Shown one piece after another: positions 13,701-59,039 of a stretch of DNA of 64,000 nucleotides. How positions within the stretch are numbered: the stretch's first letter is position 1; each line of letters begins with the position of its first letter. The notes under the pieces were generated by a model, which saw only the letters and a list, made by a program, of their open reading frames with translations, made no database searches and was not told where the DNA came from. Source of the stretch: Cyanidioschyzon merolae. Its lineage: Eukaryota. The stretch is from the NCBI GenBank assembly GCA_000091205.1, contig AP006488.2. One strand, 5' to 3'. A program made the position numbers and the translations under genes.

Positions 13701-14035
13701 CATACTGGTCTGTGCGAACTCGAGCCCTGAGAGACCCGCACTCTGCCTATCTACATGGTCGCAACAATCGCCAAGAATAGGCTAGCGCCGCTCGTTCCAC
13801 TCAGAGCAGTGAATCCCGGAACATCTGTACCAGCAGGCGGTTTTTTGTCTAACAAAGAGAGTCTCTATGAAGGTTGGAGAATGGTCGCGGAAAGACTTTG
13901 TGTGCGCACTGCTAGCTTTGGAGAAATGGCCTCACTTGTGCAAATCAGCTATTCGTCGGTCAGCTAGTGAGTGATCCATCCCTCTGCTCGTTCATATCCC
14001 GAATGCAGTACACCAAAAACTGAACTTGCCAAACT

Positions 14036-17000
14036 CTAGGCCAACGACTCTTCCCTCGACAATCTATTCCAGTCCAAATGCTCGCACCGTAATGCCACCA
14101 AAGATGCAATTCCATGTAAACTTTCGGTAACGTTTCCTCGAGCGGAGCTGAAGAGACGCGGATGGATCAAGAAACAGGCACGCCTCAACAGGAGACCGCA
14201 CCATTTCGAACAATACACAACAGATTCTGTATAGAAATGCGAATACTTTTCGTGGAAGCGACGGGCGTTCATCTCGCATGATGACAAATTCATCGATGAC
14301 CAATGCGAGACTTGTATAGACGTTGCCGTAGAGGGGCAAGCCGCTGTTTGTGAAGAAGAGTCAAGCGAGCATTCCGACAACGTCAGTTCTCGCGACGATT
14401 CAATACTGTGGTCGCCCATGAATCGCAACACAGAAAGCAGCGCTCAGCACCTGATCCTCCGTTGAAACACGCCTCGAGTTCCATCTTTTCGTGTCCTTCT
14501 CCTGGGCAATATCTCTCAGTCCATCACTGATGTCGGTCGGGGGGCGGGGGCGCGGTTTGTAGCTGCTCTTCGTGCTAGCACACGCTCGCGGGTTCCATCC
14601 GCTTAAAGACGTCGTATAGGATTTCAAACGCCATTTTGATCTACCGGAAGAACAGACGAGTCGTACGTAACCGTGTTACAGAAGTTCTTCGACAAATCAC
14701 TCTTTGTGTTCACCAGAACCGAATCCATGCATTGATTCTCCGCTCATTGGCAGCTGAGAAGGGAAAGGTGCGCTCCGGTCTGGGAGCGGGCATGCGATGG
14801 CTAAGGCGACGAAAAAGCACTTGAGAAACAGTGCGTACATTCAAAGAGAAGACGAGTTTCAGGCACGTCGAGCGATCAGTGCGTCTGAGTGCCAAGAAAG
14901 AAAACGTATACAGCGTATCATGAAAAAATCCACGCTACCTAGCCGAGTAAGCGAAAAGGCAAAGATGTCGAAGCCGAAAGAGATGCAACCACACGTCAAA
15001 GCAGAGAAATAGCTTCCCTAAAAGATGACGAGTTCCGACGGGAACGGAGCACCTTCCGATCGGAAAGATCATTGTTGGACCGCTGTCAACGCCTCACCAA
15101 TAAATCATATCCATTGGGAGAATCCTTGAAGGCGTCAGGCACACGACGCCATTAGAGATCGCGTAGCTTCTTACGCGCACAAGTCTTGCCTATTTCGTCT
15201 TGTCTTGGTGCACCGCGCCACGCGACGCTTCGGTGGAGTTCCAGACACGGGCGGCAAGCTCTCGGCATTTCTCTGGATTTTTTTCGGATCAGACCTTCGT
15301 GCGAGAACACCACTTATGCTCCGGATAGAAGGCGCAACACGGCCTGTTCATAGGATTCCGGATGTACTCGCACGCTTCCCAGAATACCTTGACACATTAC
15401 CGCGCCACCTCGGCGATCTGAGGATCGACAACGCAGATGCCAGAAAGTACGGAACTACATTCAACATACCAAATTAGGTTCAGTGTCGAGCGCTTCACGA
15501 AACACCTCCCATGCGCATTGTATCCTCACGTCACATACGCGATAAAATACGGATGGATGGACGGGATGCTTAGCGGGTCGATGGAGGAAAATGACGAGCG
15601 ATTGGCGGCAAGAGATCGAGGTGGTAGCGAGTTCGGAACTGATGTGCCAGCGATAGGGAGTATCGCTTCAGGTAATCCAAGCTCGTCGTGTTGCCGTCAG
15701 CCTCGGGTCGGCGGATTTCGTACCGAAAAGGATCGTTGAGACGCAACGCCTACCTTGCTTGCATCTACGGTTCCATGTTTCGCTGAGCAGATCTTCCCAG
15801 AGCAGACCAGAGCAGATTCCATCAGACCGTCGCCTCGAATCCAAGCGCCGTAGCCTCCGAAATCGCCAAGTGGATGTGCTCCCAGCACCTCAGATGGAAG
15901 CCCAGTCGATCACCCGAGACGCTTCTGCTCTGTACTGTATCGCATCTTCAGTGAGCTACAGCTGGTCTGTCTGCGCGCAGCTATTCCGCATTCCACTATA
16001 GAGGCTAAGAGCATTGCAGAGCTCGTTCAAGGCTCCTCGTGTACGGAGAAGGAATGGAACGAATTCTACAGTGCCGATGGAGCTCGCTGGAATACAAATC
16101 CGCATGTACTTGTGAGATCGAGGCCCAAGTCAAGCGATGCGACTCGGTCTCAGCCAAAGAAGACATATCAAGAGAGAAACATCATGGTGGGCCCGGATCC
16201 CCAGGTCTGAGAATATCATGACGGTTGTCGTACCTCTGAATCGAGAGAACGTATCGAGGGATATGCAGGGAATGCAAACGAAGCTACTCAGCTTTTCCCG
16301 GGCTCGATTTCACCCAGGAATGGGCATGATGAATGCGAGAAGGCACACGAAAACTGGAAAGACGGCGTCAGGGACCAGACCCCGGTGCTCTGAGCACACT
16401 GTCCTGCAGACGAGGATGCTTTGTGTGCTGCATTCAGAGAGAACACGAGCGTCCAAATGGCGTATGTCGACGATCTCTGGCAGAAATACCTGCGGACGCA
16501 CGGGAATGGCCAACGATTTTCGGCGTACAGGGGCAGGACGCGAGTATTCAGCGACTTGTTTCATGAACAGGAAAAGAAATACGACGGATCGTTCGTCTCG
16601 TTGGGTGACGGTACCCTATGGCGCAAGACGTGCTGTGGCGCTCGTGGGCTGCACGCCTGCTCCTCTGACGAGAACGTAGAACGAGTGCAGGAAACGATTC
16701 TGTACGACGCCTGTCGATGAGTTACGGCCAACAGAGAAACGTCACGAGCACGAGTGCCCGTTGAAACAGCCAGAAACGAAGCGCTTGAAACAGAGCACGA
16801 TGGACGAGATGGGGTACGGCATGCCGAGCGGACGTCTGCTTACGAGGCAGTCAGATGCATGAGGCTCGCAATGTTGCGATACAGTCGCCAACAAGGTATG
16901 CAAGCGCTTTCTGTGCCAAGACTTGGACGCCTCAATCAACACCCGAAAAAGTCGAGTGCTTTCGGAGCGTCCTGCGGCTCTGTGTCAAGCGAAAATTCCT

Positions 17001-17934
17001 GGTAATCGTTTCGTATTCTTTGTCGGCATTGCGCTGAAATGCTGAAGACTCCGGATTGAAAAAACTCAGTGGCCAGGAGAGATGGCATTAGATTCTCGCC
17101 CGGAGCGAGGCACTGTTGTGGTCGAGCGCATCCATCGAGCGAGGTAGCAGCGTCGTATGTGTATACTGCGAACGTTTTACCTCGGCAGTGATGTCATGAT
17201 CATGGTGTTCCATTATTCGGCGTTACCAAGCATATGCGTCTCTTTACAGAGTCGTGAAATCCAATCCCTTGATCCTACTCCCAGCGGGACTTGCATGCCT
17301 AGTGGTCGGTTCGAAAACAGTCTCCCATGTCTCTTTGCGATCATGTCACAAGGATGAACCAATCTATGTGCAGGCGTTCATTCCGAAAGCAACAGTGTCG
17401 GTCCTTAGACGAATTTTCGAATCCGGTCGCCTCGTCCGATACAGCGCTGCGTATGCGCGACGATATTGATATCAGTGTTTGCATAAGAAAATCATATCAT
17501 TTCCACCACTTCCGGTTCAGGTATAAAACGTCGGTATGAGGAATCTGGTGCCCATCATCGCAAATGGTCGCGTAACGAGTTCCCGCCGACGACCTGAGGC
17601 ACAGTGCACGGGCCATGCTCCATCGGTGTCGCGTATTGCACCAGTTACGAGCACGAGAAAGCACTATCCTTCCATGACATGGTGGCAGTGCGCATGTGCC
17701 CGGGTCTGTTCTGACGCTTTCAGGGTCGCAACAGGAACGCAAGGCCCCGTCCCGTAATCCACCGACCGCAAAGCTGCCTTTGTTCCATAGTGGGAGCCTT
17801 ACAGGATCCAGTGCGTCCTGTCCGTGCCTCGGGGATATCTTGGAGCCGGACGGATCGGCCGTACCCGCAAGCGTCACAAAGCCAGCACGGAAACTGTACG
17901 AGGAATCCCATAGATTCTGCACCAGACCCGACAC
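14036..17934 (-). mobile_element. Decayed LTR-retrotransposon pol relic, Ty3/gypsy domain order, no LTRs found
   Basis: Minus-strand fragments occur in the order RT (RRPLGMPYPISSIVLCFKRFV in 16742-16942; FLPEIVDIRHL...CSEHRGLV in 16310-16564), RNase H-like (DFGGYGAWIRGDG, 15697-15888), then integrase core-like (LALVIDEF...LFLDPSASLQLRS...GGITVRAFGLE, 14064-14339). All are interrupted by stops and frameshifts. Confidence 0.55.
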
Positions 17935-20149: not shown

Positions 20150-20886
20150 GAGCGGTCTACGTGCAACGCTGCGATCAGCGAGATGTGACGATGCGGTGCT
20201 GCAGCGCGTCACATCTGCTGCAGCATGCGCATCACCGGAGGACGCTGGCCTACGGAAACGTTTTGTCCATGAAAAAGATCTGCTGCTGCATCGGATTGCA
20301 GCAGCTATTGTCTTTCACCAGGATTCTGTTCCACATCCAGTAGCGTGGCATCAAATGCTTTTCCGCGGTTCATAGCAGATATGTTCGAAGTGTGTTTATT
20401 TGGAGAAACAAAAGATCCATGGCACAGGAATAGACGTGGATGTCGGGCATCCTGGAGCGCTGTCATCGATGATCGCCAGAATGAAACGGAAAAACCCTCT
20501 TTTCGCCGACTATGGAGCGAAGGAGAGGAAGAGCAACAAGGGGAGATGCACGAGAAGCGGTGCTTGCACAGCGGGACGGTGACTAAACTGTAGAGGCACA
20601 GAGCGCACGAGTTCAAGGAATCCTTGCATTGGTGCGTTCAACAGTGGCAAAAGACGCATGGAGTTCATCAACCGAGACTGTAACGCCGCTGTGAATATCA
20701 TACAATGAGTGGCGTTGTAGACGAGACCCGAGGAGCTAGCGAAATCTAATTTTATTCGGCAAACTCTCAGGCTCGAGAGGTGCCTTGATAAACTGAAACC
20801 GAAAGCAGGCGGTCGGTCGAAAAAGTTGGGAGACGCCTGCGTATGGGTATTCATTTACCCACCATGGTTGTGGGATATTTTTCGTT
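20150..20886 (+). mobile_element. TnpB/Fanzor-like gene relic, family C copy 1
   Basis: The plus frame gives ...NSGKRRMEFINRDCNAAVNIIQ* at 20664-20708, then (V)AL*TRPEELAKSNF. It is collinear with 44736-45650 and 35680-36215 (reverse). It contains multiple stops. The lower boundary is approximate. Confidence 0.6.
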
Positions 20887-22377
20887 CTATCAACGATGTC
20901 TTTCTCGTCGATGGACCATGGGCAAGCGTGTTTAGCTCATCTGGAGGTTCGCGGTTGCACAGGCCCGACCGGAGCCCGAGTTAGGGGGCCTCTTCTCGCT
21001 GGCGGACACGTCTACATAGCACCCGACGAGCAACGTCTAGCGGATGAGAGTCGTTGCCTTTTGGTAGCGCACAGCGAGCGATAAGCAGAGGAAGGTGCCA
21101 GTTTTACGCATGGACCTGAAACGGTGCTCGCGCAATGCTCGGAAAAGCCTCACAGAATATCGGCAAGTGTTCGTTCGTTCATTCAGCGTTTGGAATTGAT
21201 GAGGCTCTGGATACCTGTGTCTCCCAGTGGTTTCCAGAGAGTCGGGGCATGTGTTGTGTTCTTTCCCAGCCGTGTCTTCATCCTCGCGGATTCTGCCGAG
21301 GGGCGCGCTTCACGTCGGAGCGCGGTAGCTTCCGCGCCATCCCGGGCAACACGGAATTCGTTCTGCTGCTGTGGTGCATTCGCCGCTGGAGTGTCGACCT
21401 GTTCGGCACTGTGTTTCTTTCGTGCCGCTCTGTCTCGAAACGCTGTGTCCTGTGCGAGTCGGCAGCCTCCATCGACGGAATGTTGAGGTCGACTCTCGAG
21501 CGACGCTTCACGCACGGTCGTGCACTTGAAAAAACACTTCATTAACGTTCGGCGAAGCATCATGCTCGCATGCAACTCGTGAATAACATTTTGCCAACGA
21601 GAAATATCTCAGCGGTTTGCCGAAAGTATTTCTCATTTCGAAACGCGGTGGAATTGAGTGCTGCAGCCAGCCATATTGAAGCGCTGTAATGGGAACGCGC
21701 TTTCAGAGGCACGTGCACGGGCAAGAGAGCCTCTTCGGTGCTCTACTTCTGGTCGAGCACCAAGAGCACGACACTTGAGCGATGTGACGGCGGACGGATG
21801 ACACCCGTTGCATCCGGCCACGGTAACGCTACTGGATAAAAGTAGTGGCATGATGTAGACAGAATATGGAATTACAGCATACCCACCGCCATAGTGAGAT
21901 GCGGGACGCTTAGTACGGAAAAGTTACGCATGTACTACTTCCTGTGCCACAAGCAGACTTTCTGTCAAGGTACGAAACGCTGCGTACCTACATCTTTCTC
22001 CTGGACGCGGCGAACGAGGTATCTGCAGATGCGAGCGCACGCACTTCCATTGCAGCCAGCACATTATCGTCCATATTTGCGCGATCTATCCAAAATGAAG
22101 GCAATCTTCGCTGTCGCGTGTCTGTACTGAGAGGCAAAGAGCAAAGCCCAATTCCTAGGCGAGCACGCTTCTGGTATTTATGACGGCGACGGCAATCGTT
22201 TTGCAGAGATACCGACTTACGCGGGGGTATATCCGACGCCGCGGGGAATGGTTTAGACGAAATCGCGTGTACAGCAGAAACGTATCGATATCCTGGACCA
22301 CAGGCATTTGGGTGTGACAGCTGCTGCTGCTGCCGAGTCCAAAACGCCGCTATGTTGCAGTGAGGCTCCCAGCCACC

Positions 22378-24218: not shown

Positions 24219-25560
24219 TCAGCATAGAACGGAAAAGGTTTTCCGATTCGTACGCACCTACCAAAGTTTAGGTTGTACCCGCGCTCATCAACACCAGAAT
24301 TTGCGGGCTTTTTCTGCGACAGCTTCCTTTGCCGCTCGCTTTTCTCCAGTTTAAAGCAAGGTAGTCGTATCTGCAGCCTAAGGCTCCAGTGTCAGCAGTC
24401 GGAGGATATACCGATGGCGCCAATAACGCCTAGCTTTCGTTGCTTCCCGCAGTTGTGAACGCGTTGCATGTGTAGAAGGTAGCTGCGATCTAGACACTTT
24501 GCTCGCCGCTATCCTATTCGCCTTTCGGTGAAACCTCGGTGCGTTCCGCAAAGCGATTACACGTGCCTGTGGTCGGTGTTGCTCACAAGTCCACAGCATG
24601 TTCTCCATCGAGCGCCGTACCATGGTGCATCGACGCTTGCTTCATTACTCGGTCCGTGCGCTTGACTGGCGAAGAAGGCTCTCTGCGGTGCTTGCCTCCT
24701 TGACAGCGTCCAGCGCGGTACCCGGACGGTCGTGGACTTGTTCTTGGCGATACCTCCCGCGCGTATGCGTTCCAGTGCATGGAAAAGGATACGCGTTTCC
24801 GTCCAATGGATAGCCTGTTGAACGCAATATGAACCCTGCTGAAACCATTACCCAAAGACAAGTCCAGGTAATAGAACGAATCGGGGGAAATTGTCGCGTG
24901 TACGCTCCTGTAGTGCGAAGCGGTTGCGTATTGCCCGCTGTAAGCGAATCGCTGTGGTGACGGAGGCTCAAGACCCTTTACCACACAAATCATTGAACGT
25001 GGAGTCTCTGGGAGCATATCCCATGAGAGGTAGCATGCTGCTGACGAATGCAGTTTCGTTGATAACCGCATATAGAAGAGGAGGAGTCGTTCAAACGGAA
25101 TCGAATCTTCGTGGTGACCATTTCATTCCAATTTTGACATGAAGATATCGAAAAGTCGTCAAGAAGTGACGCCGAGCATTCGTCCTCAAAACAGAGGCGC
25201 GAATCCCTTCGTCCATGAGTTGCCTTGAAATAGAAGGATCGCAAATTAGGTGAATGCGTGTTCTGAGCACACTACTCATAAAGAAAGGAATATAGTGGAT
25301 GCTTGTGCACATGAACAATTCCATCGTGTCTACGTTTTACCAACTGTTGTCTGAGTGCGTCGGGAGCCATTCTGATATCGGTGACGGAACCTATTCCAGA
25401 GACAACGCGTCAAAGAAGCCACTCCGACCACACGATCGAGAGTCCTAAGAACACATTCGAAGCCATAAACCCTTTTGTTGCACCTCAGACGTCCAGGCTG
25501 AACGTCAACCAAAACGAAATCGGGAACAAATACCGAAACACCTGAACACAGGGATCCAAT
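24219..25560 (-). mobile_element. RT-bearing repeat family A, copy A3 (young 3' module 24219-25160 plus diverged 5' part)
   Basis: The 942-bp module is near-identical to 28704-29645. Minus-frame peptides are AVINETAFVSSMLPLMGYAPRD (KAFD-type motif), ATISPDSFYYL (SP..LF-like), WNAYAREV (YADD-position) and CCGLVSNTDHRHVC (CCHC-like). No frame stays open beyond 162 aa. Confidence 0.8.
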
Positions 25561-30781: not shown

Positions 30782-33700
30782 CTAAGAATCCAACGCGTCA
30801 AGTACGTCACCCACGAGACCTTGACGCACAATCCGCTGACCCGAAGGATCCACATACGTAAAGCGGAAGCGGAACGTCAATGGACGTGTGTCATGCCCAT
30901 CCTTGTGCAGTCGAAACCGCTGCGTTACCCGCTGAGGTTGTGTCGACGGGGGCAGGCTCCCCGACGTAGCTGGCATCATTTCGAGCAGAATATAGTTCGG
31001 TACCGATATTTGGAATAAAAATTCCGTAAAGGTCCGCGGACTCTTGTTCATGAACTGGGCTTCCAGATGGTATACCTGTCGCTGTTGTCCATCGACAGTC
31101 TCCGAGCTGGTGCGTTGGATCTGTATGCGGAGCTTTTCGTCGTCGTAGATGACGCGACTCGCGGACGCTGACCCGGCTGACGCTTCCTCGCTCGAATTCA
31201 CTTGATCCAGGACGCTTTCCAGGATATCGAGATGCCACGCCGCTCTGCTGTCGTTTTCGTTGGTGGATTCGCTCGAAACTGCAACCGGTACGGCATCGGC
31301 CAGCAGAGTGCGCTGGCGTGGTGCCTGCACGGCTGGTTGCTCGTCCGGTGCTCGTGAACCGGACGTTTCCGCGCTTTCCTCCTCGTCATCAAAGGAAATG
31401 AGTTGTGCGGCTCCGGCGTTCATCCGTGAGCGATGCTGCGAGCCGAGGAATCGAATGCTCACGATTCGAGAGCGCGCTGCACCCTGTCGCCGCCAGGCGA
31501 GCAAACTTGATGAATCTGGTAGCGAGAATGCAGACTCGAGCTGTTCAAAGGTCTCAGACGGAGCGTTCTCCAAAACCACCAGGTATTCTCGAGCTCGCTG
31601 TTGCACGTCTAGGCTCAAAGCTTTTGATTGCTCGGAGAGGAGTCGAGCGCATGCACCAAACACTTCACTCGTCTTGAGCCGCGTCCGCAAGGCTGTGCGA
31701 AAGAGCACATCTACGGCTAAACGCCCCAGGGTTGATGTCCGGTGCAGATACGCCGGTCTTTGCCGTTGACGAAGAGACAGATCCCGATCACCAGGTAGAT
31801 GAAGCACCAGTTCCGCTAGTTTCCAATTGAGACTATCCTCTGCGGCTGACGGGATATCCGCGCTGTTCACAGATGAAACACCATTTTCTGCGGCTTCGCT
31901 GTCTTCACCAGCGCGTTCGGATAAAACTGCCGCACTCGTTGCAGTCGGAGCTTTTGACGTTCCGAGTTCGAAATCAGGTGCTTGTTCTATCGCCGCATTC
32001 GTTGCACGTGGAGCTTTTGACGTACCCCGTTCACGCTTAGATGCTTGTCCTATCTGGGCGCTCGCATCCGCGTCTTTTGCGTATGTACGAGGGCGAGCGC
32101 TATGCGGAATGTCGTGCTCAGCAGCAAACGCAAGTCCAATATGCATGAGCAGGGTCACAGCCGAACGTCTCCGCGCAATTTGCTCTAAAACAATATCCAT
32201 TAATCGGTAAAAGATAGCCATACCAGCTTCAGGGTTCGCCAACATCGCCGTGACTACCTCGTCAGCGAGCTCCGCTTCGATCTCTTGCACTACCGAGAGC
32301 CCTGGGCCGGCGTACGCATCACCAGCAACATCGGAGCCGCCACCGACGCGAGGTTCGTAGATGCGGTTGCGCTGATCACCACTAGCACCACTACCGGGAT
32401 CGCCAGCACCGCCCCTGAAGGCGTCGTCGTCGATGTCATCATCGCCGGTCGGTAGCGTCTGAGCTACCTCTACGAAAAGGTCAAGTCTTCGGTACACGTC
32501 CGGCTCTGTCTCCTCGAGGAGCAACCACAAACGCTGAAGAATCTCGTAACGGTGCAGTGCTTCCCGCACGCTCTGTAGGTAGGATACCAACTCCTTGCAG
32601 AATCGCTGAAGCGACGCTGCAGTGCCTATCGCAAACAGGAGACTCAAGGCGCGTCGCTGAATGGTCGGGTCCGCATCACGAAGGCACTCGAAAATCGTCT
32701 CCTGGTGGGCGGCAACACTCGCCATGCTCCGCTCTGCAGCCTGTGGGAGCAGTTCTAGCGCAACAAGGCGCAAGTTCGGGTCACGGCTACGTAGAAAGTC
32801 ACCGAGTATCTGAATCGCGAAAGCCAGGTTTCTCGAAGGCGAGCTCTCTAGCGCCAAAATCGTGCGAACACATTCGAGGACAACTCCATGAGAGCGTTCA
32901 CTTGAGCGCGCAACATCGATAAGTGTTCGGTGAAGCTCCTCTGTCGCCGCCGAATCGTGCTGCCCCAGTCGTCGAAGCATCTTCAAGATGCTGCACTGGA
33001 GAAATGGATCGCAGACACCCTGGAATCCGTATTCTGGATTGAAGCCAGCTGTTGCGGTTTCTCGAAGCTGCTGCACCAACAATGCCTGATACTCGTTGGC
33101 TAGCATCCCATACAGGGCACCCGGCGCTACCGTCAGCAGCTCCTCGAGCAGCGCCAGACCGCTAATCAAGACACCGTGGTGGTGTGGCATCTTCAACAGC
33201 TCCAGGGCGGCAGCTCGAAACGAGTCCGCTGGTTCTGGAGTACGTCGACATAAACGGAGCGCCGCAAGCGCTGCTTTCTTCCGTATAAAAGGGTTCCGCG
33301 AGTGCAGGAGACGTTCCACGTCGGGAGCGAGGTCCTGACCGATCTCCGCTGAAGCCAGGTTCGCCACTACGTGTAACGCGAGAGCCACAATCTGGTGGTT
33401 GTCGCTCTGGAGATCCTGTTTCAAAACGTTCACTACGAGAAGAAGAACTTCAGATTGTTCGTCGAGCAGTACCTGCAGCGCCATGTACCCAATGCGTTTG
33501 TCTTTGAACTTGGGACTGGCACAGAGTTTGACGCACTCCATGATACCGAAATCGACACCATAGCCATTTAGGTAGAAAAACACGAGTTTTGCAACGTTGC
33601 GTCGGCGGAAGTAACGATCTTCTTGTCGAGATAGGTCCCGAATCTGAGCGAGCTGCTTTTTGACAAACTCGCGCTCCGCCGAGGCAGTCCTTTGCTTCCG

Positions 33701-35365: not shown

Positions 35366-35679
35366 TTGTCGGCTCAGACGCAGGTGCGCAGGTTGCAGCC
35401 TCTCAAAACTCCCCAAAGAGCGTGACCTAGCGAAACCTGTGAGGCTGCAAGTGGCGCTCGAAACGGAAGCTCGAGAGCGCTGCAGGACCCTTTGGGACTC
35501 GGACTGGTCTCACAGAGTGCACTTGGCCTCAACCGCAGCAAACAAAATCGTTCTGTCTGTGAGAACAGCGCTTGATCAAGTTCAGCAACAGAGGGTAAAG
35601 CTCGTGCGGGCTTAACGGCAGTGCCAGCCGCTTTCGTCAACCCACTGCTGTGACAAGCAACTCTTGCAGGAGTATATGC

Positions 35680-36215
35680 TCAGTAAAACAAAAAAAGTTC
35701 CACAGCCATGGAGGGTACAGAAAACCCATTCATAGAAATCTCCAAGCTTCTTGTGACCGGCCGGCTTCTACTGATTTTGTTTTATCCAGGCATACCTCAT
35801 GCCTGGGAGGCTGCCCCAGAAAGTTGGATTGCGTCAGCTTCGAGGGTCTCGTCTTCAGTACCGCACAGCTCCTTATATTGATGGAGGCGTTGAAGTCTCG
35901 GTTCACAAACCCCATGCTTTGATGGCCTTTGATGGAACGCTTCAGAGGAAGGATTGCCAGAACTCGTCCCCCCTGTGTCAATGTATTCTCGTCGTGGTCC
36001 CGTCGGACAAGCGCCTTATCTCGCCGATCCCCTCACTTCTTCTTCGTCTTCGTCACTGGCTCGTCTTAGCTAGATGGTCGGGGAGGAGACGATTTTTGGC
36101 TTTCTTTCGACAGCCAGCAATGGTGGCCCTGTAGGATCCCCGACTTTCATGTCCATGGCTTTCCCTTGGATTTTTTATTTCTTCAAAATGAACGCACTTC
36201 TTTATGCCCTAATGT
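35680..36215 (-). mobile_element. TnpB/Fanzor-like gene relic, family C copy 2 (5'-truncated)
   Basis: The minus ORF 35730..35981 contains GFVNRDFNASINIRSCAVLKTRPSKLTQSNF. Upstream in the same frame is KAMDMKVGDPTGPP. The non-coding tail is collinear with copies 1 and 3. Confidence 0.6.
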
Positions 36216-36275: not shown

Positions 36276-36920
36276 TCACCGTTTGCTGAATGCATCAGTG
36301 ATTCGTCCAGTGGAGCGATCATTGCGTGCAACGACGGAAAACCCGCCTTCGATGGGGCTCAACCACGGAGAGCGCGGAGGAATGAAAAGCAGCTCGACAC
36401 CAATAGCATCAGCAACAGCTCCAAAGTAACAGGAGTGGTCAAATGCTATGTTGTCCAACAGAATGAAGTCGCCAGGCATCAGGGGGCAAGTCTTTGATGA
36501 TTCGACAAAGTGGTTGGAGCAGTTGGATAGGCGTTCTCTGCCTGCGAAACTGAGGTCGCCGAATATATCCTCAAAAGCTTGAATAAAAGTATGATATCCT
36601 CGTTCTACTCGAGTTCCATCGTACGTACAACGGGTTTCCTAATCCGCGAATATCCATATACGTTCCGATCGGTTCTCCCGATGGAATTCTTATCAACTGA
36701 AAAAAAACAAACCGACGCCCCTCTGCTTCATACTGATAGTGACGTTCCAAGAACTTTGTTGTCTTTGAGCTTTCAGTAGAAGACGGCCGTGCGTGAAAAC
36801 GGTAATATTTTTGCGACGATATCCAAGTGTTTTCAGAGCCGAACGAACAAGCTTTTGAGAAACAGAAATGCCAGTGGTGGCTACTACCGTCGCTTTTGCT
36901 CTCCGTAAGGTGATCAACCA
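36276..36920 (-). mobile_element. Tc1/IS630-like DD34E transposase relic
   Basis: Minus ORF 36276..36479: FILLDNIAFDHSCYFGAVADAIGVELLFIPPRSPWLSPIEGGFS, with 34 residues between the D of DN and the E of PIE. Minus ORF 36693..36917 carries an HTH-like segment GISVSQKLVRSALKTLGYRRKN. The middle part is frameshifted and shortened, and no TIRs were identified. Confidence 0.65.
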
Positions 36921-38883
36921 GTCTCTTTTTTACGATTTACTGCGAGCAGTCTCTGAAAATATTGGTAGCTGGAATAGAGCACAAGTACTTGTTTCTTTCA
37001 GTGTGCCTCAACCATGTCATTCCAGTTGTGTTGCTGACCTGAGGGACGAATGCAATCCCCCTCGCATTTTTCACTAAAGAATATATCCTATATTCAATTC
37101 ATCTGTGACCTCTACGGTACATTGAATGGTCATTTCGATCTCCTGCTCTACACCGAATAGGGGGTGAATCAAAATTGAGTTGAAAAACGATCATCATGGC
37201 GCATACATTGTTTCGCGATTGTGCGTTGGATTCCATGCCTGCACACGGAAACGTACATGTCACTGAACTTTTTGGACCCAGGATCTCCAGGTTCAGTCCT
37301 GAGCGCTGTCGGCAGAACGCCGCGAACACCAGCTGTGCGACTCCTTCGGCTGGTGCGGCGACCAGTTGATGATTTTTCTTTGGGCTGCAGGACGGATGGG
37401 TCGAAGCTGACGCTGCAGCGAACCAGCATTCTCGGGTACATCCCGTTGGCAGGCCCTGGCATCATCCACGCGTTCCATTTCTTGAAGCGAGGGGATCGAT
37501 GACTCCGAGCCGAGGCTCCTGGGATGCAGGGGAAGCATTGGTGATGCTTCCGCTTTCACTGCACATGATCGATATGCCAGCGAAATGATAAGCACGTCCA
37601 TGAAACTGCTCTGAAGCACTGATATGAACGAAGGTCGCCTCCTATTCTGAAAGGATAAAAACTTTGAAATTTTTGCGCACCGCTATGTGTACAATTCGAG
37701 TCCCTTGCTCGCTACTCGTTGTACGAACGGGACGCGGTTTGCAGCGTAGGTCTGGAGCCTGCATGAATATCAACGCGTCATGATAGCGCGTCCACGCGGA
37801 GACTTAGCCGAATACCAATCCAGGTTTTGAGATCTGGATATCCTTCGATATATATGGTAACCATATGAACTGTGCGATCCGTGGCATCGGGTCGCGAAAA
37901 ATAAATCAATCGAAAAAGAGCCCCGTGGCTACTTCTGGAATGTATCTACGCACGGTCGCTTCGTTTCAGCAGCCACGTTTTCTCGCAACGAGCACAAGTT
38001 CCAGCTTGCACGCCTCAGCTGCGTTCGACTCAGCGCTCTCTGGGAAGCACACACTCGCGTTTTTCGCACGGTCTGCAAGACCCCGAGGCATCCGCGGAAC
38101 CCTGCGGCGTCCGCGAGTGCTCACAGGCGCTCTGAGCTCGGAAGAGCGGATCGTATCCCGGTGAAGAAGATGCCTGCTTCAGGCACGGAACCAAAATTGA
38201 TATTGTGGAGATGATTCCCGCACAAGAAGCACAGCCACTCATGCTGAATGCCCGACAACGGGCGGGGATCATGGAATACGATGCATGTTGACCGTGGACG
38301 AGCGGTTGAACGTAACGCGCCCTTGTGTGCTCCCAGCCGTGAACCCGTCATCGCTCACGTATCGGTATCGATTTCCATAGGTTCCCCGCATAGCCACCGA
38401 ATGCGATCCACTAAACCATTTCATATATCCGAAATGTAGGTCGTCTCGGGTGGCTGAATTCCTTGCGAGCACGGACACGGCACATACAGCATGCACCAAT
38501 ACAACGTTTATGATGCCTGCCCCCTCGAAGACACATAGGAAAGCACATGCTGCACCCTTCAATATAACATGCGTCCTGTTTGCTTCCTCGCAGAGTCAAG
38601 CAGAGCTCATACTGCACGCACCTTCGCGATGTATTCGACGCCAGCGAAAGTTAAGCGTTCGGGCCGTGCCAAACAAGACCAGCAAAGTCATCGCTGCGAG
38701 CAATTTCATAGTGCATTGATGATTACATTTATCATGATGATTCTAAAGAGCGATACACTTGGTACTGCCGCCGATCCGACTCGAGAAATTTCACCCGCCA
38801 CTACAATAGATATTGATCCACAGAGTACATCCTCCAGGAATGCCCGCTAAAGTGCGCAAGTACATGCATCCGAGCTAGCGTCA

Positions 38884-44330: not shown

Positions 44331-44735
44331 CGCCGCAAAAAAGATTCGCGGGGAAACATTGTTGTACGCTTGCAGATAGTGAAACATTTAGTCCGTTATC
44401 AGAAAGCGTTTGGGAGAACGCGGACCAGGACTTTTGTAGGCAACGCTTAGAGATGAGGCTCGCCTTAAAACAGCATGGGCAGCCTATCGAGCTGCTGCTT
44501 CCCTGATGATGTCGTCGGCACCACAGTGAATATCCACGGTGCGCTCATCAGAAGGAGACCTGGTGGAATGAACGAGCGTGGGATCTTGACGCAAGACCCA
44601 CTTGGAGCAAACGGAAACTTGGAGCTGCTGGGTAGAAGCTAATATGCGTTCTTGCTACGGGTAGCTTTCGTCCAACTGCGATCATTTATTTTGATCTGTT
44701 TACCCACAAACCAGTTAAACTTATGCTCTGTGAAA

Positions 44736-45650
44736 CGAACAACATTTCACGACTATGACGTGTACATATTCACCCTTTCACAGACGCTTCCCAGCCTCTT
44801 TCGACCGGTCGCCTGCTATCGGTTTTCGTTTCTCCAGGCACTCCTCTAGCCGTAGAGCGTGTACCACAAGTTGGATCGCGTCAGCTCCTCGGGCCTCGTC
44901 TTCAGCACCGATCCTCGTATGATATTGACGGCAGCATTGAAATTCCGTTTCACGAGCTCATTGCGTGTATTGCCTCTGGCTGAACTTGCTAATGCAGGGA
45001 CTGCTAAATCAAGCAATCCTCTCTGCCGCTGCAGTCTCGATATCATCGCGTCAGACATGAAAACCTCTCCTCGCCTATCGCCCGCCTTCTTCATCTCCGT
45101 TACGCGCTCTTATTCGCTCGATGATCGGTGAGACAAGGATTTTTCCGTTTTTTTGCCGGCAGCCGGCGACACCGAGCCTCCAAGATCCTCGACTTCCATG
45201 TCCATAAATTTCCCTTGGATTTCTTATTTTTGAAAACTTACGCACTTCGAAAGCATCTGCCACGAACCAGGAAAAATCATCTGATGACACACACCGAGAG
45301 GTGGAACGCAACTGAGGTGTAAAACGATAACAACCCAATGCGACGTTGCAGATGCCTAGTCGCAGCGGTGACACGGGCGCCCGCGCATTCCTCCCCAAGT
45401 CCTGGCCAGGTGTGTTGCTCGCCGAGACAGTGCGAAGCAGCTGCGTAAAGGTTCAACGGAGACCGCACGAGTTCCTCGGAGGACACGAACCAAACCCATA
45501 ACACGCTGAGTAAGCGTGCTAGTACATCGCAGAGCTTGATCGCCATCGAGCAAAGCAGCAAACTTTGCGCGCCCTGAGCAAGTCGATAACCGTAACGCAG
45601 CCCCTCCAGGTGGAAAGACGCGCTCGTTCGGGCGTCAGAGAAAACCAACC
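44736..45650 (-). mobile_element. TnpB/Fanzor-like gene relic, family C copy 3 (longest)
   Basis: The minus ORF 44846..45094 ends in ...NELVKRNFNAAVNIIRGSVLKTRPEELTRSNL. Upstream in the same frame is SWQMLSKCVSFQK*EIQGKFMDMEVEDLGGSVSPAAGKK, where TnpB/Fanzor carry ...L.YK...G..V..V.E.YTS..C..CG. It has stops and frameshifts. The upper boundary is approximate. Confidence 0.65.
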
Positions 45651-48130: not shown

Positions 48131-48379
48131 AACTCTCCAGCGTTTGAGCTCAATCTCCGCAGTGCATACAACACACTGCGCACGAACAAACGACTCACGG
48201 GAAATAGCTGGACGCTCCGTATGTATGAGACACTTTCAGATATTGATCGGTGCGTTGAAGCGCGGGTGTGGAGAACGTGCTTCCGCGCATTGCGGCTGAT
48301 GGAATCACATCATCGTGATGCGCTCTCTTGCGACTGCCTCGCCATTTGACGTTCGTTCAGCTTACCGTTCACCTTTTCG

Positions 48380-49640
48380 TGCGCCAGTTATTGTTTCACC
48401 TTCTTCTTCTTTACATGTTTCAGCGTTCATGCCCGCTCGTGATACGCATATGTGGTCCCGAACGCATCGATGGAAATCGTGCAACATCGATTCCCGCACT
48501 TGTTCTGGGTGCTCTTGTGGAAAGAGCAATCGTGCATCCCCGGCGAGTTACTGAACATCCAGCACCATACGCTGCCGCTCAACGAAGCGAAACCTAGGCC
48601 ATTTTGGTTTCCATTTCATAGCACAGTCTGACGAATGGAAGCTTCTTGCTTCAGTACAGCAGTCAATGTTGGCGAGCCTGGCGCGTTCACATAAACCACT
48701 GCCAAGTATCGTCGGCATGGGGCACTTTCGGTTTATGTGATCCACGAACGAAGCCTGCAATGCCTCCCCATTTGCTCGAGATGGTGCATCGGGGGTCGAA
48801 GAAGGTCCTGGCGCCGTCGTTCCACATGTTGGCACGCCTCCTGGCGTCAAAGAAGCCCGCCTCCAGATAATACCGAGTTCTGGAAAAGTTGAGCAGCTTC
48901 ATTAGCTCTCCATGCAGATCTTGGGTTCCGTACTCATGGTTAAGAGGTACGCCCAGAAACATGACGACCTTGAACCCGGAATCCAAAACGTCTACCAAAA
49001 CTTTTTCTCCTATATCCTGAACTGTTGACATTGAGATTTATTGCTCGTCTTGGGCATGGGGTTCACAATCTGAAAGCAGACAGATATTTCAAGGGTCGCC
49101 ACTGTCTATTTTCACCTTTTCCCGCTTGCTCCCCCAAACCTGGAAACCCTGAAGGATCTCCATCCCGCTATCCCCACAAACTGTTTCGAATGCCTCTGAG
49201 TTGTAAGCAGAGATCACCCGTTGCTCACCTAGTTGGGTATAAAGTTCAGTACAGATTTGTCTACGATGTTGAGATCTACCCTAGTCTGACGTACACGGAG
49301 CATGTTGAGTGATAGCTCGAGGAGACGACGGGCACTCTAATGCAGGCAGGGAGTCTGCATTGCCCCGGAGGACTCTGTTCACTTGCCCAAATCGCAGTGC
49401 AGATAGGAACACTGTTTCAACCATCCTTTGAATATGACCTCATTTGGCCCGAGGCCGAGACCAACACCATGCCCTCGGACGATTTGAAGCGATCGCCACG
49501 CTCGTTGCGGCATCTCTTCCAAACTCGCTACCTCTTCGATCTCCTGCGCCAGCAGCTCGTCACCCGCCTCCACTGACACTCGGAGACTACTCTCCATGAC
49601 TCCCATTTTTCTTCGCCAGTAAGGAGATCGGAAAACGCCC
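48380..49640 (-). pseudogene. Metallophosphoesterase (purple-acid-phosphatase-like) gene remnant, frameshifted
   Basis: Minus-strand pieces occur in the expected order but in different frames: IVRGHGVGLG (49379-49642), FKVVMFLGVPLNHEYG...LMKLLNFSRTRYYLEAGFF...DDTWQWF (48687-49031; GNHE, YYS and Q..WL positions), then GMHDCSFHKS...IDAFGTTYAYHERA (about 48400-48540; GHxHxYER position). Unrecognised introns cannot be excluded. Confidence 0.4.
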
Positions 49641-51860
49641 ACAGAGTGCGCTCCACGCAGCGCTCGAGCTAGAACCGCATTTGGGTTTTCTAGTCAGTTT
49701 GATACTGTTTGACACCTGCTTTGTGGATGTACCACTCGCAGACTGGGCACAGCAATGCGTCAACAAGTTCGAGGAAGCGCGTGCGCGAAGCTCTGATCCG
49801 ACGATCAGACCATTTTTGCATCCTCTGTCCAGAGCGTCAGCCGCTGCATGAGGGTATTATGGAAGGATTCCAGTGGAATGTGCACAGCTGGCTGCCCTGC
49901 GTCCGGAACACCCACAAATGTTTGTTTCATGATGTGCATCAAAGCGAGAGAAGCTCGACGAGCCTCCCTCGGGCCGGGAGTTCGACTACTCCGTATGGCG
50001 TCCTGCCTCGCGCTCTATGGAAGATTTCATCAATGAATACATTGCATGTGGGAGACGATGACACCCGTCTCGGATAGTTCTTTCTGCTCCGATTGTTTAA
50101 CTTGCTGTTCCATCTCGTCCTCTTTTGAGCTGGACTTTGCTCTTCTTAGTCTCGTAGGTTCTTCTCCTTCTCATCGTTAGCCTTGCCCTGTACGTGGTAG
50201 CGTAGCACGCATGTGGTTGCTATAATCTGTAACCATTGTTCTTGCGGACTCTGGAGTTCTGGGTAGACACTGATGCTGAAAAAAAGCCTTTTCTCTCTAT
50301 GAATCTACTAGTTTATATCCCTTTTCATAGTGTTATCCGTTGCGAGTACGCCCACCGGCATATGCGCTCGTTTCTGCTCCTTCTCCTCGCACGAGAAGCG
50401 GAGCAGCGCAGCAATCTAGATGTGGTGATCGTCGAGAACAACTTGTATATACATTGCGGTTTCACGGATGCACACGACTTTAATGCTGTTCAGTGAGCGT
50501 CGAAATGGCGCTCGACAACTGGAAAGGCACCATCGACAGGATTGATCCAGGGGCACGGGCTGGCGCGCAGAGACGCTCAGAATCAGCCTCAGCTGCGCAC
50601 ACGATGGCCTATTGAGCGTGGCAGAACTGGGCGTTGTTGAAGATCAGGACAGTTATATGTTAGGAGCATTCGCCACGAACATTTCTTCGACCAAGGATGG
50701 GGTGTTTAAGTATCCTTTATTTTTCCGATATGTAGATAGCCATACGACAGCGTCGCCGCTATGGCTAAGGTTGTCGTCATTCTCGCCTGTCACGTCTTTC
50801 CGAACAGCGGCTTGCCTCACATTGAAGGACCGCCGAGTTCTACTATCCATCCCGAGTGAAGCCATATCGAGTGAGACGAACAGCCGCTTCTGCTTTCACA
50901 AGCGTTCGCATCTCAGAGCGTCATTGAAAGCATTTTGTTCAACGCGCGCTTGCCTTCTAGATAAGCGTGCAATGTACTCGCCCACTTTGTACACCGTTCG
51001 TGTCAACGGTAACAAATCTTGGAATCCTGCGACTTCTTGAGATATTCTTCTTCGAGAGCATATGAAATGCAATGGATTGATGCGTGGATAGTCGTACTAG
51101 TAGCGTAAAACAAGTTCTTCCCTGGGTACACGTCGTTCAGGAGAGGAACTACGCCAAGCTTGGCGCTTATCCACCTGCTGACCCTGGAGCAACTGATTTG
51201 TTCGAGTAGGACCTTTTACCCATGTTCTCGGTGACGGCATCATGTTTTTCTTCGACTATTCTCTATTGTAAAAAGGCAGACTCCTTTTGTTGTGCTACTG
51301 ACAGAAGAACAAACAAAAAAGCGTGCTGCTGCATCTGCTCCAGCGTGCAGTGCTCTGAATCGAACGCTGCTTTGGCGATACCTCTGAACCTCGTCATTCT
51401 GGACACAATACATGCAACGCGGCGGCATCGACAGTGCCCGAGCGTTTCATGCACAGAACTAGACAATCCAGCACGGATTGTTGCCCTAGGCAACGTCGAG
51501 CACATATGTCCATTATAAAACCAATATGTTCAGCATCAGGAGCGTGCTCCTAGCGGCGCCTCATTTCGCCATCGATGGTGGCGGAGACGCTCGCACGGGC
51601 AATGACGTGCGCGCTCACGTCGCAAAGCCAGCGCATCGCGCTGCGTGAGCGTTCAAAACGTGAAACTACTCCGGTGTGTGAACTGACTCGTGTGCAGGGC
51701 GTGATCCCACTTCGTCCTTGTTCATCAGTTGGTTGCAGTGACATCTTTGTGTTTGTGGCGAAGAATTTGGCAGATCTGCTCGGTCTCTGAACTTGAAACC
51801 TTGTACTGCAGGAACGCACCGAAGACACCGCTTGGTGACGCATTGTGCTGGTGGTTTTTC

Positions 51861-55337: not shown

Positions 55338-55500
55338 GGATAAATAAATCCACAGTCTATGTATCCATTGACACGCCCATATATTTCAATGATCTATATA
55401 AAATATATCCACAGTCTATGCATCCATTGAACAAATCCATACAGAACATTGCTCTATTCGAAATAAATCCTCAGTCTATGGATTCGTCAACGTCTCCATG
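55338..55500. repeat. AT-rich tandem repeat, period about 59-60 bp, 3 units, about 220-380 bp upstream of the CHO2-like ATG
   Basis: aaataaatccacagtctatgtatccattga (55342), aaatatatccacagtctatgcatccattga (55401) and aaataaatcctcagtctatggattcgtcaa (55461). The atcc anchors lie at 55348, 55407 and 55467. Confidence 0.75.
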
Positions 55501-57968: not shown

Positions 57969-59039
57969 AAGGATTGAAATCCGGTTCGAAGCTTCCAACA
58001 GGACCTGCAGGAAGCGACGATTGCTGGAAAGAAAGCACTTTTTGGCACAAGGCACCTCCGCATGTATGCTTCCTTGCGTTGGTATCTGACTCCCAGTCCA
58101 AACCATGTTGTACACGACAATCATCGCTCCGCATTGACGGAGCTTGAAGTTAGGCGGAAAACGTGTTCAATATATGAAACAAATGCTCGAAAACGGCCTG
58201 ATTCGGGACAGACTATGTTCCGAAACGCTCCGAAAATGCATTGATGATGACCTGATATTCGCCGCTGTGGACCAGTACAAGAGAGCGCCATCGCTATGCT
58301 CCGGGGTCGCGTGTCTGCGCAAGGCATCTCATCGGGGACCTCCACGGTGACACTCGTTCGATCGATGCTTCGGGTGCAGCAATCGGATCACTTGGTGATC
58401 ATTCGTGGTATCAGAAGCGATGTTGTGGAGACGCTTTCGAGCTTCGCGTCCACAGCGACTCAAGTCCGGACCAGTGAACGTGGAACGATAACGCGTTCGG
58501 CACGCGTCCACGGAAACGCGGCCCCCGAGGACATTGGTCTCTGGCGAACGCTGCACGGGTCTGTTCGAGCACACCGTTCTGATGCCGCTGACGCCGATGA
58601 ACCGCCCGTTGCGGAAAGACGCAAGGCCCCCGGCAGCGATCTAATCGGTACGGATGCATCTGTGTCCAGCGCTAAGGTGTTGTCTGAGAGGCTTTGCCAC
58701 GAACTGTACACGATTCGCTGTTACTGAACAGTGCGCGCCTTGGCTCGCCACGTCTATGCTGCCCGTTCCGCTGGAAACCCAGTTGCGTCAAAAAGCTTTC
58801 AATGTGGGGATGTCCAAGGAAACGCTCGGTATCGCGGCTGCCTAGGACGAACATCTGGAAAGACTTTCGAACCAGGGCTGATGTATCTGAGTTTGCGCAA
58901 GTTAGAATCTAATTGCTACGTTTCGTTTCGCATAGACAAGACTCCGTTCTCGGACGTGGACTCGGCGATTTCAAACGTCAGCTACCAAGTAAATATCCTG
59001 ATTAGGATAGCGCTTTTTCCGCTGTGCCATACACCCGAG

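Follow-up and report, generated by a model that had tools for sequence, protein, structure and literature searches.

Positions 44736-45650 of the window (the whole stretch of DNA analysed, 64,000 nucleotides of Cyanidioschyzon merolae 10D chromosome 6) raise the question of what kind of element left the broken repeat found there, c3, and two similar repeats, c1 and c2. We concluded that the three are very probably neutrally decaying, non-autonomous derivatives, about 0.6 kb long, of a Fanzor1-bearing DNA transposon family of this alga (CMe-1A, encoding the protein CMe-1). The presence of three collinear repeats, as described in the initial annotation, was borne out by self-BLAST of the window, with pairwise E values from 2e-28 to 2e-35: c1 and c3 were 66.4% identical over 581 bp (E 8e-34), c1 and c2 65.9% over 519 bp (E 2e-28), and c2 and c3 67.2% over 534 bp (E 2e-35). 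The copies were also aligned with MAFFT. The peptides previously quoted for them (EFINRDCNAAVNII, FVNRDFNASINIR, VKRNFNAAVNII and MDMEVEDLGGSVSPAAGKK, with TRPEEL or TRPSKL further downstream) proved to be correctly read, and the stops, the frameshifts and the D-to-N replacement in copy 3 were all found. The loci given for the repeats also stood, and only the upstream limits of c1 and c3 had been placed too far out: upstream of ~20298 (c1) and ~45330 (c3), a search showed the copies to resemble neither each other nor CMe-1A, and ~320 bp of the interval 44736-45650 lie outside the c3 repeat. The extents with support are listed in Table 1. On look-up, neither the repeated ORF of 162 aa nor the other small ORFs had an annotated counterpart, but nine of ten ORFs compared with known proteins were identical to C. 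merolae 10D entries in the range BAM79456-BAM79469.

Table 1. Positions of Fanzor1 and DDE_3 transposase remnants in the window and of the parts of the short copies
Feature	Position	Strand	Description
DDE_3 transposase relic	13878..14415	+	upstream of relic A, same strand
Long relic A	15043..17038	+	Fanzor1 pseudogene, near-full-length but heavily decayed, from a lineage that is more divergent
c1	20298..20895	+	short element, same build as c2 and c3
c1 start codon	~20432	+	mutated to ATA
c1 deletion junction	between 20545 and 20595	+	
c1 RuvC-III motif EFINRDCNAAVNII	20661-20702	+	
c2	35675..36199	-	short element, 5'-truncated at ~CMe-1A 869, fused to DDE_3 transposase relic
c2 terminal hairpin	35703-35683	-	
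c2 RuvC-III motif FVNRDFNASINIR	~35909-35871	-	
c2 deletion junction	between 35987 and 35971	-	
DDE_3 (Tc1/mariner-type) transposase relic	36279..37122	-	directly upstream of c2, same strand
c3 (focal copy)	44722..45330	-	short, internally deleted Fanzor1 element
c3 3' tail, terminal hairpin	44750-44730	-	
c3 RuvC-III motif VKRNFNAAVNII	44953-44918	-	D to N
c3 C-terminal remnant (aa ~638-726)	45058-44781	-	
c3 deletion junction	between ~45108 and ~45058	-	
c3 start codon and N-terminal remnant (CMe-1 aa 1 to ~50)	45205 to ~45108	-	
c3 MDMEVEDLGGSVSPAAGKK	from 45205	-	Fanzor1 N-terminus
c3 5' UTR-like part	45330-45206	-	
Long relic B	48184..50142	-	second near-full-length decayed Fanzor1 pseudogene
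DDE_3 transposase relic	50454..51314	-	directly upstream of relic B, same strand

The CMe-1A element was described as a 3169-bp repeat with ~150 copies, ~80% identical to their consensus, encoding the 734-aa Fanzor1 protein CMe-1 (Bao & Jurka 2013, Mobile DNA 4:12, PMC3627910); neither terminal inverted repeats (TIRs) nor target-site duplications were found in it, no transposase was reported, and it was left unclassified (PMC3627910). Fanzor1 elements of C. merolae are thus already catalogued in the paper that defined the Fanzors, and the earlier suggestion that this lineage hosted the family is true and has been in print since 2013 (PMC3627910). Each short copy matched CMe-1A in two blocks, at consensus ~780-1060 and ~2835-3090, with E values of 1e-13 to 1e-27 in nhmmer searches and of 1e-10 to 1e-16 in tblastn searches with CMe-1. 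The blocks lay at consensus 777-1019 (20298-20545) and 2834-3087 (20595-20843) for c1, and at 869-1062 (36199-35987) and 2842-3083 (35971-35733) for c2; for c3 they lay at 785-994 (45330-45108, E 2e-27) and 2840-3084 (45018-44780, E 3e-17). At the protein level, CMe-1 aa 656-723 were matched in c1 (E 2e-13), aa 640-726 in c2 (E 8e-16), and both aa 1-58 and aa 638-726 in c3, which carries three in-register stops and three frameshifting indels. The likeness of c1-c3 is far above chance, the three being among the only five loci of the window that a Fanzor1-family HMM matches (see below).

Between the two blocks, all three copies lack ~CMe-1A 1060-2840, an in-frame internal deletion of ~1.8 kb that removes codons ~54-644 and, with them, RuvC-I, RuvC-II and the stretch between RuvC-II and RuvC-III. 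The RuvC active site is incomplete, the first two segments being deleted and the RuvC-III Asp of c3 being replaced by N; lacking the full triad, c1-c3 are Fanzor1 gene fragments and not Fanzor1 genes. They had been described as dead TnpB/Fanzor relics, and dead and transposon-borne they are, but the shared deletion rules out complete genes inactivated by point mutation. The RDxNAAxNI stretch is indeed the RuvC-III segment, as the relics match CMe-1A/CMe-1 and the CMe-1 family matches Fanzor1 in profile and fold (see below). The KFMDMEVEDLGGSVSPAAGKK block, which had been taken for the RuvC-II glutamate and zinc-ribbon region, is instead Fanzor1 residues 1-19 (MEKEVEDPGGPVSPAAGKK), with the 5' UTR before it. 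The segment ..GSWQICSKCV, upstream of the MDMEVED block, was considered as a decayed YTSxxCSxCG zinc ribbon and rejected; it lies within the CMe-1A 5' UTR, before the start codon. That the cysteine ligands are lost is a moot point, with the region deleted and intact members of the clade having no canonical CxxC...CxxC anyway.

The short copies share with CMe-1A the same host, 72-79% DNA identity in the retained blocks and 42-49% identity over aa 638-726, as well as the N-terminus MEKEVEDPGGPVSPAAGKK and the C-terminal FVNRDFNAAINIRRCAVL.KRPPEL of CMe-1. They differ from it in having neither consensus ~1060-2840 nor the TE-N2_CMe 5' part, in having another 3' tail, which also occurs in older full-length copies (L062, for example), and in being only ~62% identical to CMe-1A-type copies, which are 82% identical among themselves. 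On these comparisons, c1-c3 would be best described as a deleted sister subfamily of CMe-1A. They also resemble MITE-like deleted derivatives, being ~0.6 kb long, multi-copy and effectively non-coding, with both parental end regions and no enzymatic core, but they have no detectable TIRs or target-site duplications; a published MITE survey reports none in C. merolae (PMC3964958, abstract).

The same left-plus-right build was present at 11 independent loci, three in the window and eight in hot-spring metagenome contigs, and none of the 24 short-copy matches had another or an intermediate breakpoint. Orthologues of c1 occurred in five metagenome contigs at an identity of at least 90%, and that of c2 in contig L003 (99.1% identity across 3.6 kb). 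A single junction thus recurs at multiple independent loci, and c1-c3 belong to an amplified non-autonomous subfamily that is now decaying neutrally. One could suppose instead that a full-length Fanzor1 stood at each locus and suffered the identical deletion independently, by slippage or end-joining at AAATG/ATGG microhomology. Short direct repeats, AAATG(T)G and AAATGG, do flank the breakpoints in full-length copies with the short copies' 3' tail, such as L062, and the short copies form no tight clade apart from these: in the 3' region they are 67.5% identical among themselves and 67.3% to full-length copies of the same tail type. As the short copies are no tighter than this, phylogeny cannot prove a single deletion event, and distance analysis for a single origin was uninformative in so old and star-like a cohort. 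However, the junction is identical within decay noise at 11 independent loci that also have the same 3' tail type, alternative breakpoints are absent, and microhomology of 5-6 bp is weak for that many identical events, so that we regard repeated independent deletion as decidedly unlikely. The deletion probably occurred once, at the AAATG/ATGG microhomology.

Another reading makes the short elements functional, now or once, either as guide-RNA-only satellites served by Fanzor1 in trans or as a domesticated mini-protein of 158 aa. The consensus of the 11 copies (628 bp) does restore a single open frame of 158 codons, but an in-frame deletion of coding sequence would itself give an open consensus frame; mismatches to the consensus were spread equally over codon positions (0.191/0.207/0.189, p = 0.33), frameshifts occurred in every short copy and stops in most, and the copies were ~33% diverged from one another. 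Neutral decay of the copies was thus evident. For the RNA, characterised Fanzors have their guide RNA encoded in the 3' region that borders the right end of the transposon, where conservation extends into the ORF, and solo copies of the guide RNA are known in Chlamydomonas (PMC10530073); these, like the copies in the window, are short and multi-copy and lack an enzymatic core. The 3' 234 nt of the short consensus folded beyond shuffles (z = -2.8; -2.5 for the CMe-1A 3' end), and an 8-bp hairpin closed the 3' ends of both. Against this, an Rfam scan of the window gave no family, and covariation in the 3'-terminal hairpin was not significant, exceeding that of shuffles in neither test (52/500 and 48/500); unlike the Chlamydomonas solo copies, the copies in the window showed no sign of RNA function. 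A functional role, present or past, is therefore highly improbable. A related idea is that the subfamily corresponds, in a eukaryote, to guide-RNA-only satellites and spread as a parasite of Fanzor1 and of a transposase of mariner type, both supplied in trans; this seems to us unlikely. Such satellites would have kept, of the Fanzor1 transposon, just the promoter with the 5' end and the module at the 3' end that holds the guide RNA and the right end.

The Fanzor1 identity of the parent family of c1-c3 was established by profile and by fold. A profile built from 68 relatives of CMe-1 matched only PpFz, SpuFz and GtFz in the PDB (E 2e-24, 2.5e-18 and 2.8e-15, respectively); an earlier profile of seven sequences had given only a marginal Fanzor1 match (E 0.032). 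The D, the E and the RD were invariant in the 68 relatives, the triad being D422, E593 and D662 in the intact relative P0148. The fold comparison was made with P0148 and not with the relics: its AF2 model (pLDDT 88.5, pTM 0.86) retrieved Fanzor1 structures from the PDB at Foldseek ranks 1-7 (E 8e-17 to 1.5e-13, TM 0.54-0.74), and the next matches, Cas12o/Cas12f, had E values above 1e-3. SpuFz (8GKH, Spizellomyces punctatus), PpFz (9CF0, Parasitella parasitica) and GtFz (9CER, Guillardia theta) were thus the only significant matches of both the CMe-1-family profile and the P0148 model, but sequence identity to them was just 13-15%, and c1-c3 retain only the RuvC-III segment. The published Fanzor1 motif is D-X(125,275)-[TS][TS]-X-X-[C4 zinc finger]-X(5,50)-RD (Bao & Jurka 2013, PMC3627910). 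CMe-1 and its relatives have DEFRT[ST] and RD; between them only HHE.GC and WC were seen, with no CxxC...CxxC visible. The clade has 'THHE.GC ... LLWC.ST' where a canonical finger would stand. By analogy with characterised Fanzors, the ancestral Fanzor1 was probably an RNA-guided nuclease.

Pfam gave no TnpB/OrfB match for the raw relic translations, and did not recognise CMe-1 or the 3-4 intact relatives scanned with it as TnpB-like either (best match Cas12f1-like_TNB, PF07282, E 0.5, under the cut-off). Since Pfam misses CMe-1 and its relatives too, its negative result is uninformative here. The claim that a transposon brought in a TnpB-like Fanzor gene was upheld by another route, through the CMe-1A/CMe-1 matches and then the Fanzor1 profile and fold. 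The same evidence refutes the vanishingly improbable reading that unrelated repeats contain RDxNAAxNI by chance, or that the repeats stem from a bacterial-type IS605 TnpB, for which the missing Pfam match could speak: each copy is homologous to CMe-1A in DNA and protein over ~500 bp, the family HMM is specific to five window loci, and Fanzor1 structures are the only ones matched by the profile and the fold of the family. The host, too, is eukaryotic, and the transposase linked to the relics is of the DDE_3 type and not TnpA.

The five loci were the only ones matched by the Fanzor1-family HMM in a six-frame translation of the whole window. At c1, c2 and c3 (i-E 5.6e-8, 1e-9 and 6.9e-7, respectively) the match covered only HMM positions 563-604, the RuvC-III segment. 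The two others are long relics that had been overlooked, so that the count of three copies holds for the short repeats but missed two near-full-length Fanzor1 relics and three DDE_3 relics. Relic A matched CMe-1 aa 45-699 in tblastn (26% identity, E 1e-26), CMe-1A 1071-3016 in nhmmer (E 4e-26) and positions 21-599 of the 615 of the family HMM (i-E 3e-19), and its RuvC-II TPVDELRPT and RuvC-III FLCQDLDASINTR are recognisable. Relic B matched aa 88-698 (E 2e-22), CMe-1A 967-3000 (E 1.4e-20) and the family HMM (i-E 2.8e-12), with RuvC-II ISIDAFGTT (E to A) and RuvC-III FNAPINI. A profile match spanning RuvC-II to RuvC-III, which had been named as support for the family assignment, cannot be given by the short copies; both long relics do give one. 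The five unannotated Fanzor1 relics and the three DDE_3 relics together account for ~8 kb of 'intergenic' DNA in the window.

The DDE_3 relics adjoin three of the five Fanzor1 relics, namely c2, relic A and relic B. The one at c2 was matched by Pfam DDE_3 (E 4.7e-7, C-terminal fragment) and, in tblastn with the intact transposase of metagenome contig L002, over aa 2-288 (E 7e-17); the same searches with L002 matched aa 8-186 beside relic A (E 1.7e-10) and aa 1-280 beside relic B (E 2.4e-7). The transposase-plus-Fanzor junction of c2 was seen again in the paralogous loci L004, L058 and L065/L074. No DDE_3 relic was found next to c1 or c3, and DDE_3 sequence was absent beside 8 of the 11 short copies. 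As a separate observation, inverted repeat I1 of the window (14335-14398 / 50753-50816) is formed between the transposase remnants of relic A and relic B.

The 2013 description of CMe-1A includes no transposase; in the window, DDE_3 relics are adjacent. The arrangement of DDE_3 upstream and Fanzor1 downstream, decayed at c2, relic A and relic B and intact in L002, is that of PUl-1 of Pythium ultimum, a Mariner/Tc1 element with Fanzor1 (3620 bp, 24-bp TIRs, TA duplication; PMC3627910), and Mariner/Tc1-Fanzor1c associations are also described in PMC10530073. Unlike PUl-1, the window copies have no recoverable TIRs or TA duplications: no TIRs or target-site duplications were found around c1-c3 or the long relics, and nothing consistent was found at the c2 paralogues. 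The DDE_3 relics suggested Tc1/mariner-type transposons as the former carriers of the C. merolae Fanzor family that had been left 'unclassified'. With the family and the Mariner/Tc1-Fanzor1 association both in print, the discovery value is small; what is gained in classification is the suggested Tc1/mariner-type carrier.

For c1-c3 as non-autonomous derivatives, the course of events would be as follows. The parents would have been Tc1/mariner-type transposons with the DDE_3 transposase upstream and Fanzor1 downstream on the same strand. An ancestral element would have lost ~1.8 kb from the middle of Fanzor1, joining codon ~54 in frame to ~645 and leaving on one side the 5' UTR and the basic N-terminus and on the other the final ~90 codons, RuvC-III RD motif included, followed by the 3' end and its terminal hairpin. 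Without the RuvC-I Asp and RuvC-II Glu, this derivative could not make the nuclease; it nonetheless spread to many loci, presumably mobilised in trans by enzymes from autonomous copies, and its copies have since diverged by ~16-25% substitutions and taken on stops and frameshifts.

An apparently intact member of the clade is present on metagenome contig L002, as a TIR-transposase-Fanzor1 element that encodes a DDE_3 transposase of 301 aa (Pfam E 1e-27) and a Fanzor1 of 702 aa, a candidate compact RNA-guided nuclease. Its TIRs have 28-nt arms at 3-30 and 3429-3456 that are 79% complementary and lie ~3.45 kb apart; TA is present at their outer ends. Its GC content is 46.8% compared with ~54% for the window. 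Intact mariner-Fanzor1 elements of this clade, of which L002/P0148 is an example, may still be active in hot-spring algal relatives.

Self-BLAST of the window and alignment of the copies showed that c1, c2 and c3, the three short repeats under study, are related to one another, with 66-67% identity per pair over 519-581 bp (E 2e-28 to 2e-35). Each repeat matched CMe-1A, the published C. merolae Fanzor1 element, in two blocks (consensus ~780-1060 and ~2835-3090; nhmmer E 4e-13 to 2e-27), and residues ~640-726 of its protein CMe-1 aligned with c1, c2 and c3 by tblastn (E 2e-13, 8e-16 and 8e-10, respectively); both references were taken from the supplements of PMC3627910. The initial annotation, which from sequence alone had called the repeats dead relics of a Fanzor/TnpB-like gene, was right in its central call, and its quoted peptides, stops, frameshifts and D-to-N change in copy 3 were all found in the sequence. 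The repeats it had delimited were recovered, while its start of c1 (20150) and end of c3 (45650) were too wide; upstream of ~20298 in c1 and ~45330 in c3 we found no resemblance to other copies or to the family consensus. The novelty it implied did not hold, since the Fanzor-defining paper (Bao & Jurka 2013, PMC3627910) already lists one C. merolae Fanzor1 family. There, CMe-1A has a 3169-bp consensus, to which its ~150 copies are roughly 80% identical, and encodes the 734-aa CMe-1; its first 635 bp are another repeat, TE-N2_CMe, terminal inverted repeats (TIRs) and target-site duplications were not found, and the element remained unclassified (PMC3627910).

Features in the window and in the metagenomic contig L002 (DDE_3 relics located with the L002 transposase as query)
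Feature	Coordinates	Strand	Remarks
c1	20298-20895	+	short repeat
c2	35675-36199	-	short repeat
c3	44722-45330	-	short repeat
Relic A	15043-17038	+	near-full-length, heavily decayed Fanzor1 pseudogene; E 1e-26 to CMe-1
Relic B	48184-50142	-	near-full-length, heavily decayed Fanzor1 pseudogene; E 2e-22 to CMe-1
DDE_3 relic before c2	37122-36279	-	same strand as c2
DDE_3 relic before relic A	13878-14415	+	same strand as relic A
DDE_3 relic before relic B	51314-50454	-	same strand as relic B
Relic A composite	13878-17038	+	absent from 10D proteome annotation
Relic B composite	48184-51314	-	second decayed composite, DDE_3 relic then relic B
ORF inside relic A	16137-16679		180 aa; called only in metagenomes
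TE-N2_CMe-like fragment	48117-47843		within about 70 bp after relic B; E 4e-34 to CMe-1A positions 4-261
Second TE-N2-like fragment	6131-5959
0.95-1.2 kb repeat, young copies	24219-25163, 28704-29648, 59036-59963		95-98% identical
0.95-1.2 kb repeat, old copies	about 7431-8677, 12312-13549
Short tandem duplications	31929-32054, 55342-55483		described as in coding regions
L002 element (JGI sample 3300008963)	1-3538		inverted repeats 3-30 and 3429-3456, 28 nt, TA at outer ends

Pfam was unable to decide whether the CMe-1 family is Fanzor1, the best match of CMe-1 being Cas12f1-like_TNB at an E value of only 0.5, and none of four scanned relatives reached any TnpB-type cut-off. A search with CMe-1 retrieved 45 homologues, all metagenomic and none from NCBI, including apparently intact proteins of 676-702 aa, and a profile run against 1.84 billion representatives brought up 3801 relatives (E <= 1e-30 for 484). 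In an alignment of 68 relatives, D, E and RD were invariant at the three RuvC positions, and the resulting profile matched only three PDB sequences, all Fanzor1, from Parasitella (E 2e-24), Spizellomyces (E 2.5e-18) and Guillardia (E 2.8e-15). The AlphaFold model of P0148, an intact relative of CMe-1 (pLDDT 88.5, pTM 0.86), matched the same three Fanzor1 structures in Foldseek (E 8e-17 to 1.5e-13, TM 0.54-0.74), whereas matches to Cas12o and Cas12f were far weaker. Judged by sequence profile and predicted fold, both of which were clear, the parent family is Fanzor1. The family HMM, run on the six-frame translated window, detected exactly five loci, c1-c3 and the longer Fanzor1 pseudogenes relics A and B, and in c1-c3 its match was confined to the RuvC-III segment.

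Alignment of the copies to CMe-1A revealed that c1-c3 share a single junction, from consensus ~1060 to ~2840, which joins codon ~54 to codon ~645 in frame. RuvC-I (CMe-1 D431), RuvC-II (E603) and all between are gone, leaving the RuvC-III segment (R671-D672) as the sole RuvC part; the mode of inactivation proposed in the initial annotation, namely stops, frameshifts and lost cysteine ligands, was therefore wrong. The CMe-1 ORF opens with MEKEVEDPGGPVSPAAGKK at consensus position 906, so the stretch 'KFMDMEVEDLGGSVSPAAGKK', previously read as the RuvC-II/zinc-ribbon block, is instead the N-terminus of CMe-1 with its 5' UTR. 'QICSKCV', upstream of it, was considered as a zinc-ribbon relic and rejected, as this stretch is 5' UTR.

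One metagenome contig scan gave 80 loci from hot-spring samples whose DNA resembles that of C. merolae, with identity to the window reaching 99%; these loci hold full-length CMe-1A-type copies and many short copies with the left-plus-right architecture exactly as in c1-c3. After merging of orthologues (c1 and c2 have metagenome orthologues), the short form was present at 11 independent loci, 3 in the window and 8 others, with homology running from consensus ~785 to a T-rich hairpin ~0.6 kb on. In the 11-copy consensus a single open frame of 158 codons, N-terminus plus C-terminus, is restored. Individual copies were 16-25% diverged from this consensus, with mismatches equally frequent whatever the codon position (0.191/0.207/0.189, p = 0.33), frameshifts in all and stops in most, and are decaying neutrally. 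Their 3' tail is unlike CMe-1A and matches older full-length copies such as the metagenomic locus L062, in which AAATG(T)G and AAATGG flank the two breakpoints, suggesting that a microhomology-mediated deletion produced the short form. Distances in the retained region did not split short from older full-length copies, so a single origin rests on the identical junction and not on phylogeny.

Characterised Fanzors take their guide RNA from the 3' region next to the right end, and Chlamydomonas has guide-RNA copies that stand alone (PMC10530073). That the short copies served as guide-RNA satellites is possible historically but unsupported: they retain this 3' end, the last 234-266 nt have a folding somewhat more stable than that of shuffled sequences in both the short consensus (z -2.8) and CMe-1A (z -2.5), and both terminate in an 8-bp hairpin, yet covariation in this hairpin was not above shuffles, Rfam returned no match, and the short copies are ~33% diverged from one another. 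Overall, c1-c3 are inert pieces of a deletion derivative that was amplified.

The initial annotation missed relics A and B as well as the DDE_3 relics. Relics A and B were 26-30% identical to CMe-1 (relic A about 26%) and represent a more divergent lineage; RuvC-II and RuvC-III remnants are recognisable in each of the two. Pfam identified the C-terminus of a transposase of the DDE_3 (Tc1/mariner) type upstream of c2 (E 4.7e-7), and each of the three DDE_3 relics sits directly upstream of its Fanzor1 relic on the same strand. The junction seen at c2 recurs in paralogous loci, and in the metagenomic locus L016 a transposase relic precedes a full-length Fanzor copy. Because DDE_3 relics precede c2 and relics A and B, the window contains three mariner-plus-Fanzor1 transposons in a decayed state, along with two short derivatives that stand alone; no surviving TIRs or target-site duplications were found in it.

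Long Fanzor ORFs occurred in only 2 of the 80 metagenomic loci, the slightly truncated L001 (722-752 aa) and the intact L002. L002 encodes a 301-aa DDE_3 transposase (Pfam E 1e-27) followed on the same strand by the 702-aa Fanzor1 P0148, whose D/E/D triad is complete. It is apparently an intact mariner-type element, probably not from C. merolae itself given its GC content of 46.8%, and a candidate active Fanzor1 element of the CMe-1 clade. Such pairings have been described before, in the Mariner/Tc1-Fanzor1 elements PUl-1 and PGv-1 (PMC3627910) and for Fanzor1c (PMC10530073), but the transposase link sheds light on the C. merolae family, hitherto 'unclassified'.

TnpB and Fanzor proteins usually carry a CxxC...CxxC zinc finger; at that place, between RuvC-II and RuvC-III, CMe-1 and its intact relatives P0146, P0148 and P0149 instead have 'TYTHHE.GC ... 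RGLLWC.ST', possibly a degenerate metal site or an alternative one. In full-length CMe-1A-type copies, an in-frame tandem repeat of ~75 bp, present 1-5 times, immediately precedes the RuvC-I DPG motif (about 2117-2195 of the CMe-1A consensus; seen at L001 5221-5374 and at many further loci), with units encoding sequences like KHEEKKEADPATQEVQENDF(V/I)V. Just past the published consensus end, independent full-length copies share GGCG on their 3' side (alignment columns about 440-460), followed by TTTGTTGTTG in L015, L034, L047, L007 and L036 and by T(T/G)GTTTCCAGGGG in L044 and L054, which points to a true terminus beyond the published one or else to a preference for certain target sites.

Among ten long ATG-initiated window ORFs looked up, nine were exact C. 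merolae 10D proteins (BAM79456-BAM79469, locus tags CMF0xx), which places the window on chromosome 6. Housekeeping genes identified by Pfam (K+ transporter, DHHC palmitoyltransferase, proteasome ATPase, ATP-grasp, DXP synthase, PEMT) surround c1-c3, which sit in intergenic DNA without annotation. Another repeat family, distinct from these and about 0.95-1.2 kb long, has five window copies, the three young ones recently duplicated as judged by their identity; the minus strand of each young copy carries an ORF of 162 aa that matched nothing in Pfam and had no exact counterpart in the protein collection, and two of the young copies flank an Hsp70-like gene. The AP-1 gamma gene contains a 63-bp unit twice (78% identical), and a ~60-bp unit, also 78% identical, is duplicated just upstream of the PEMT-domain gene.
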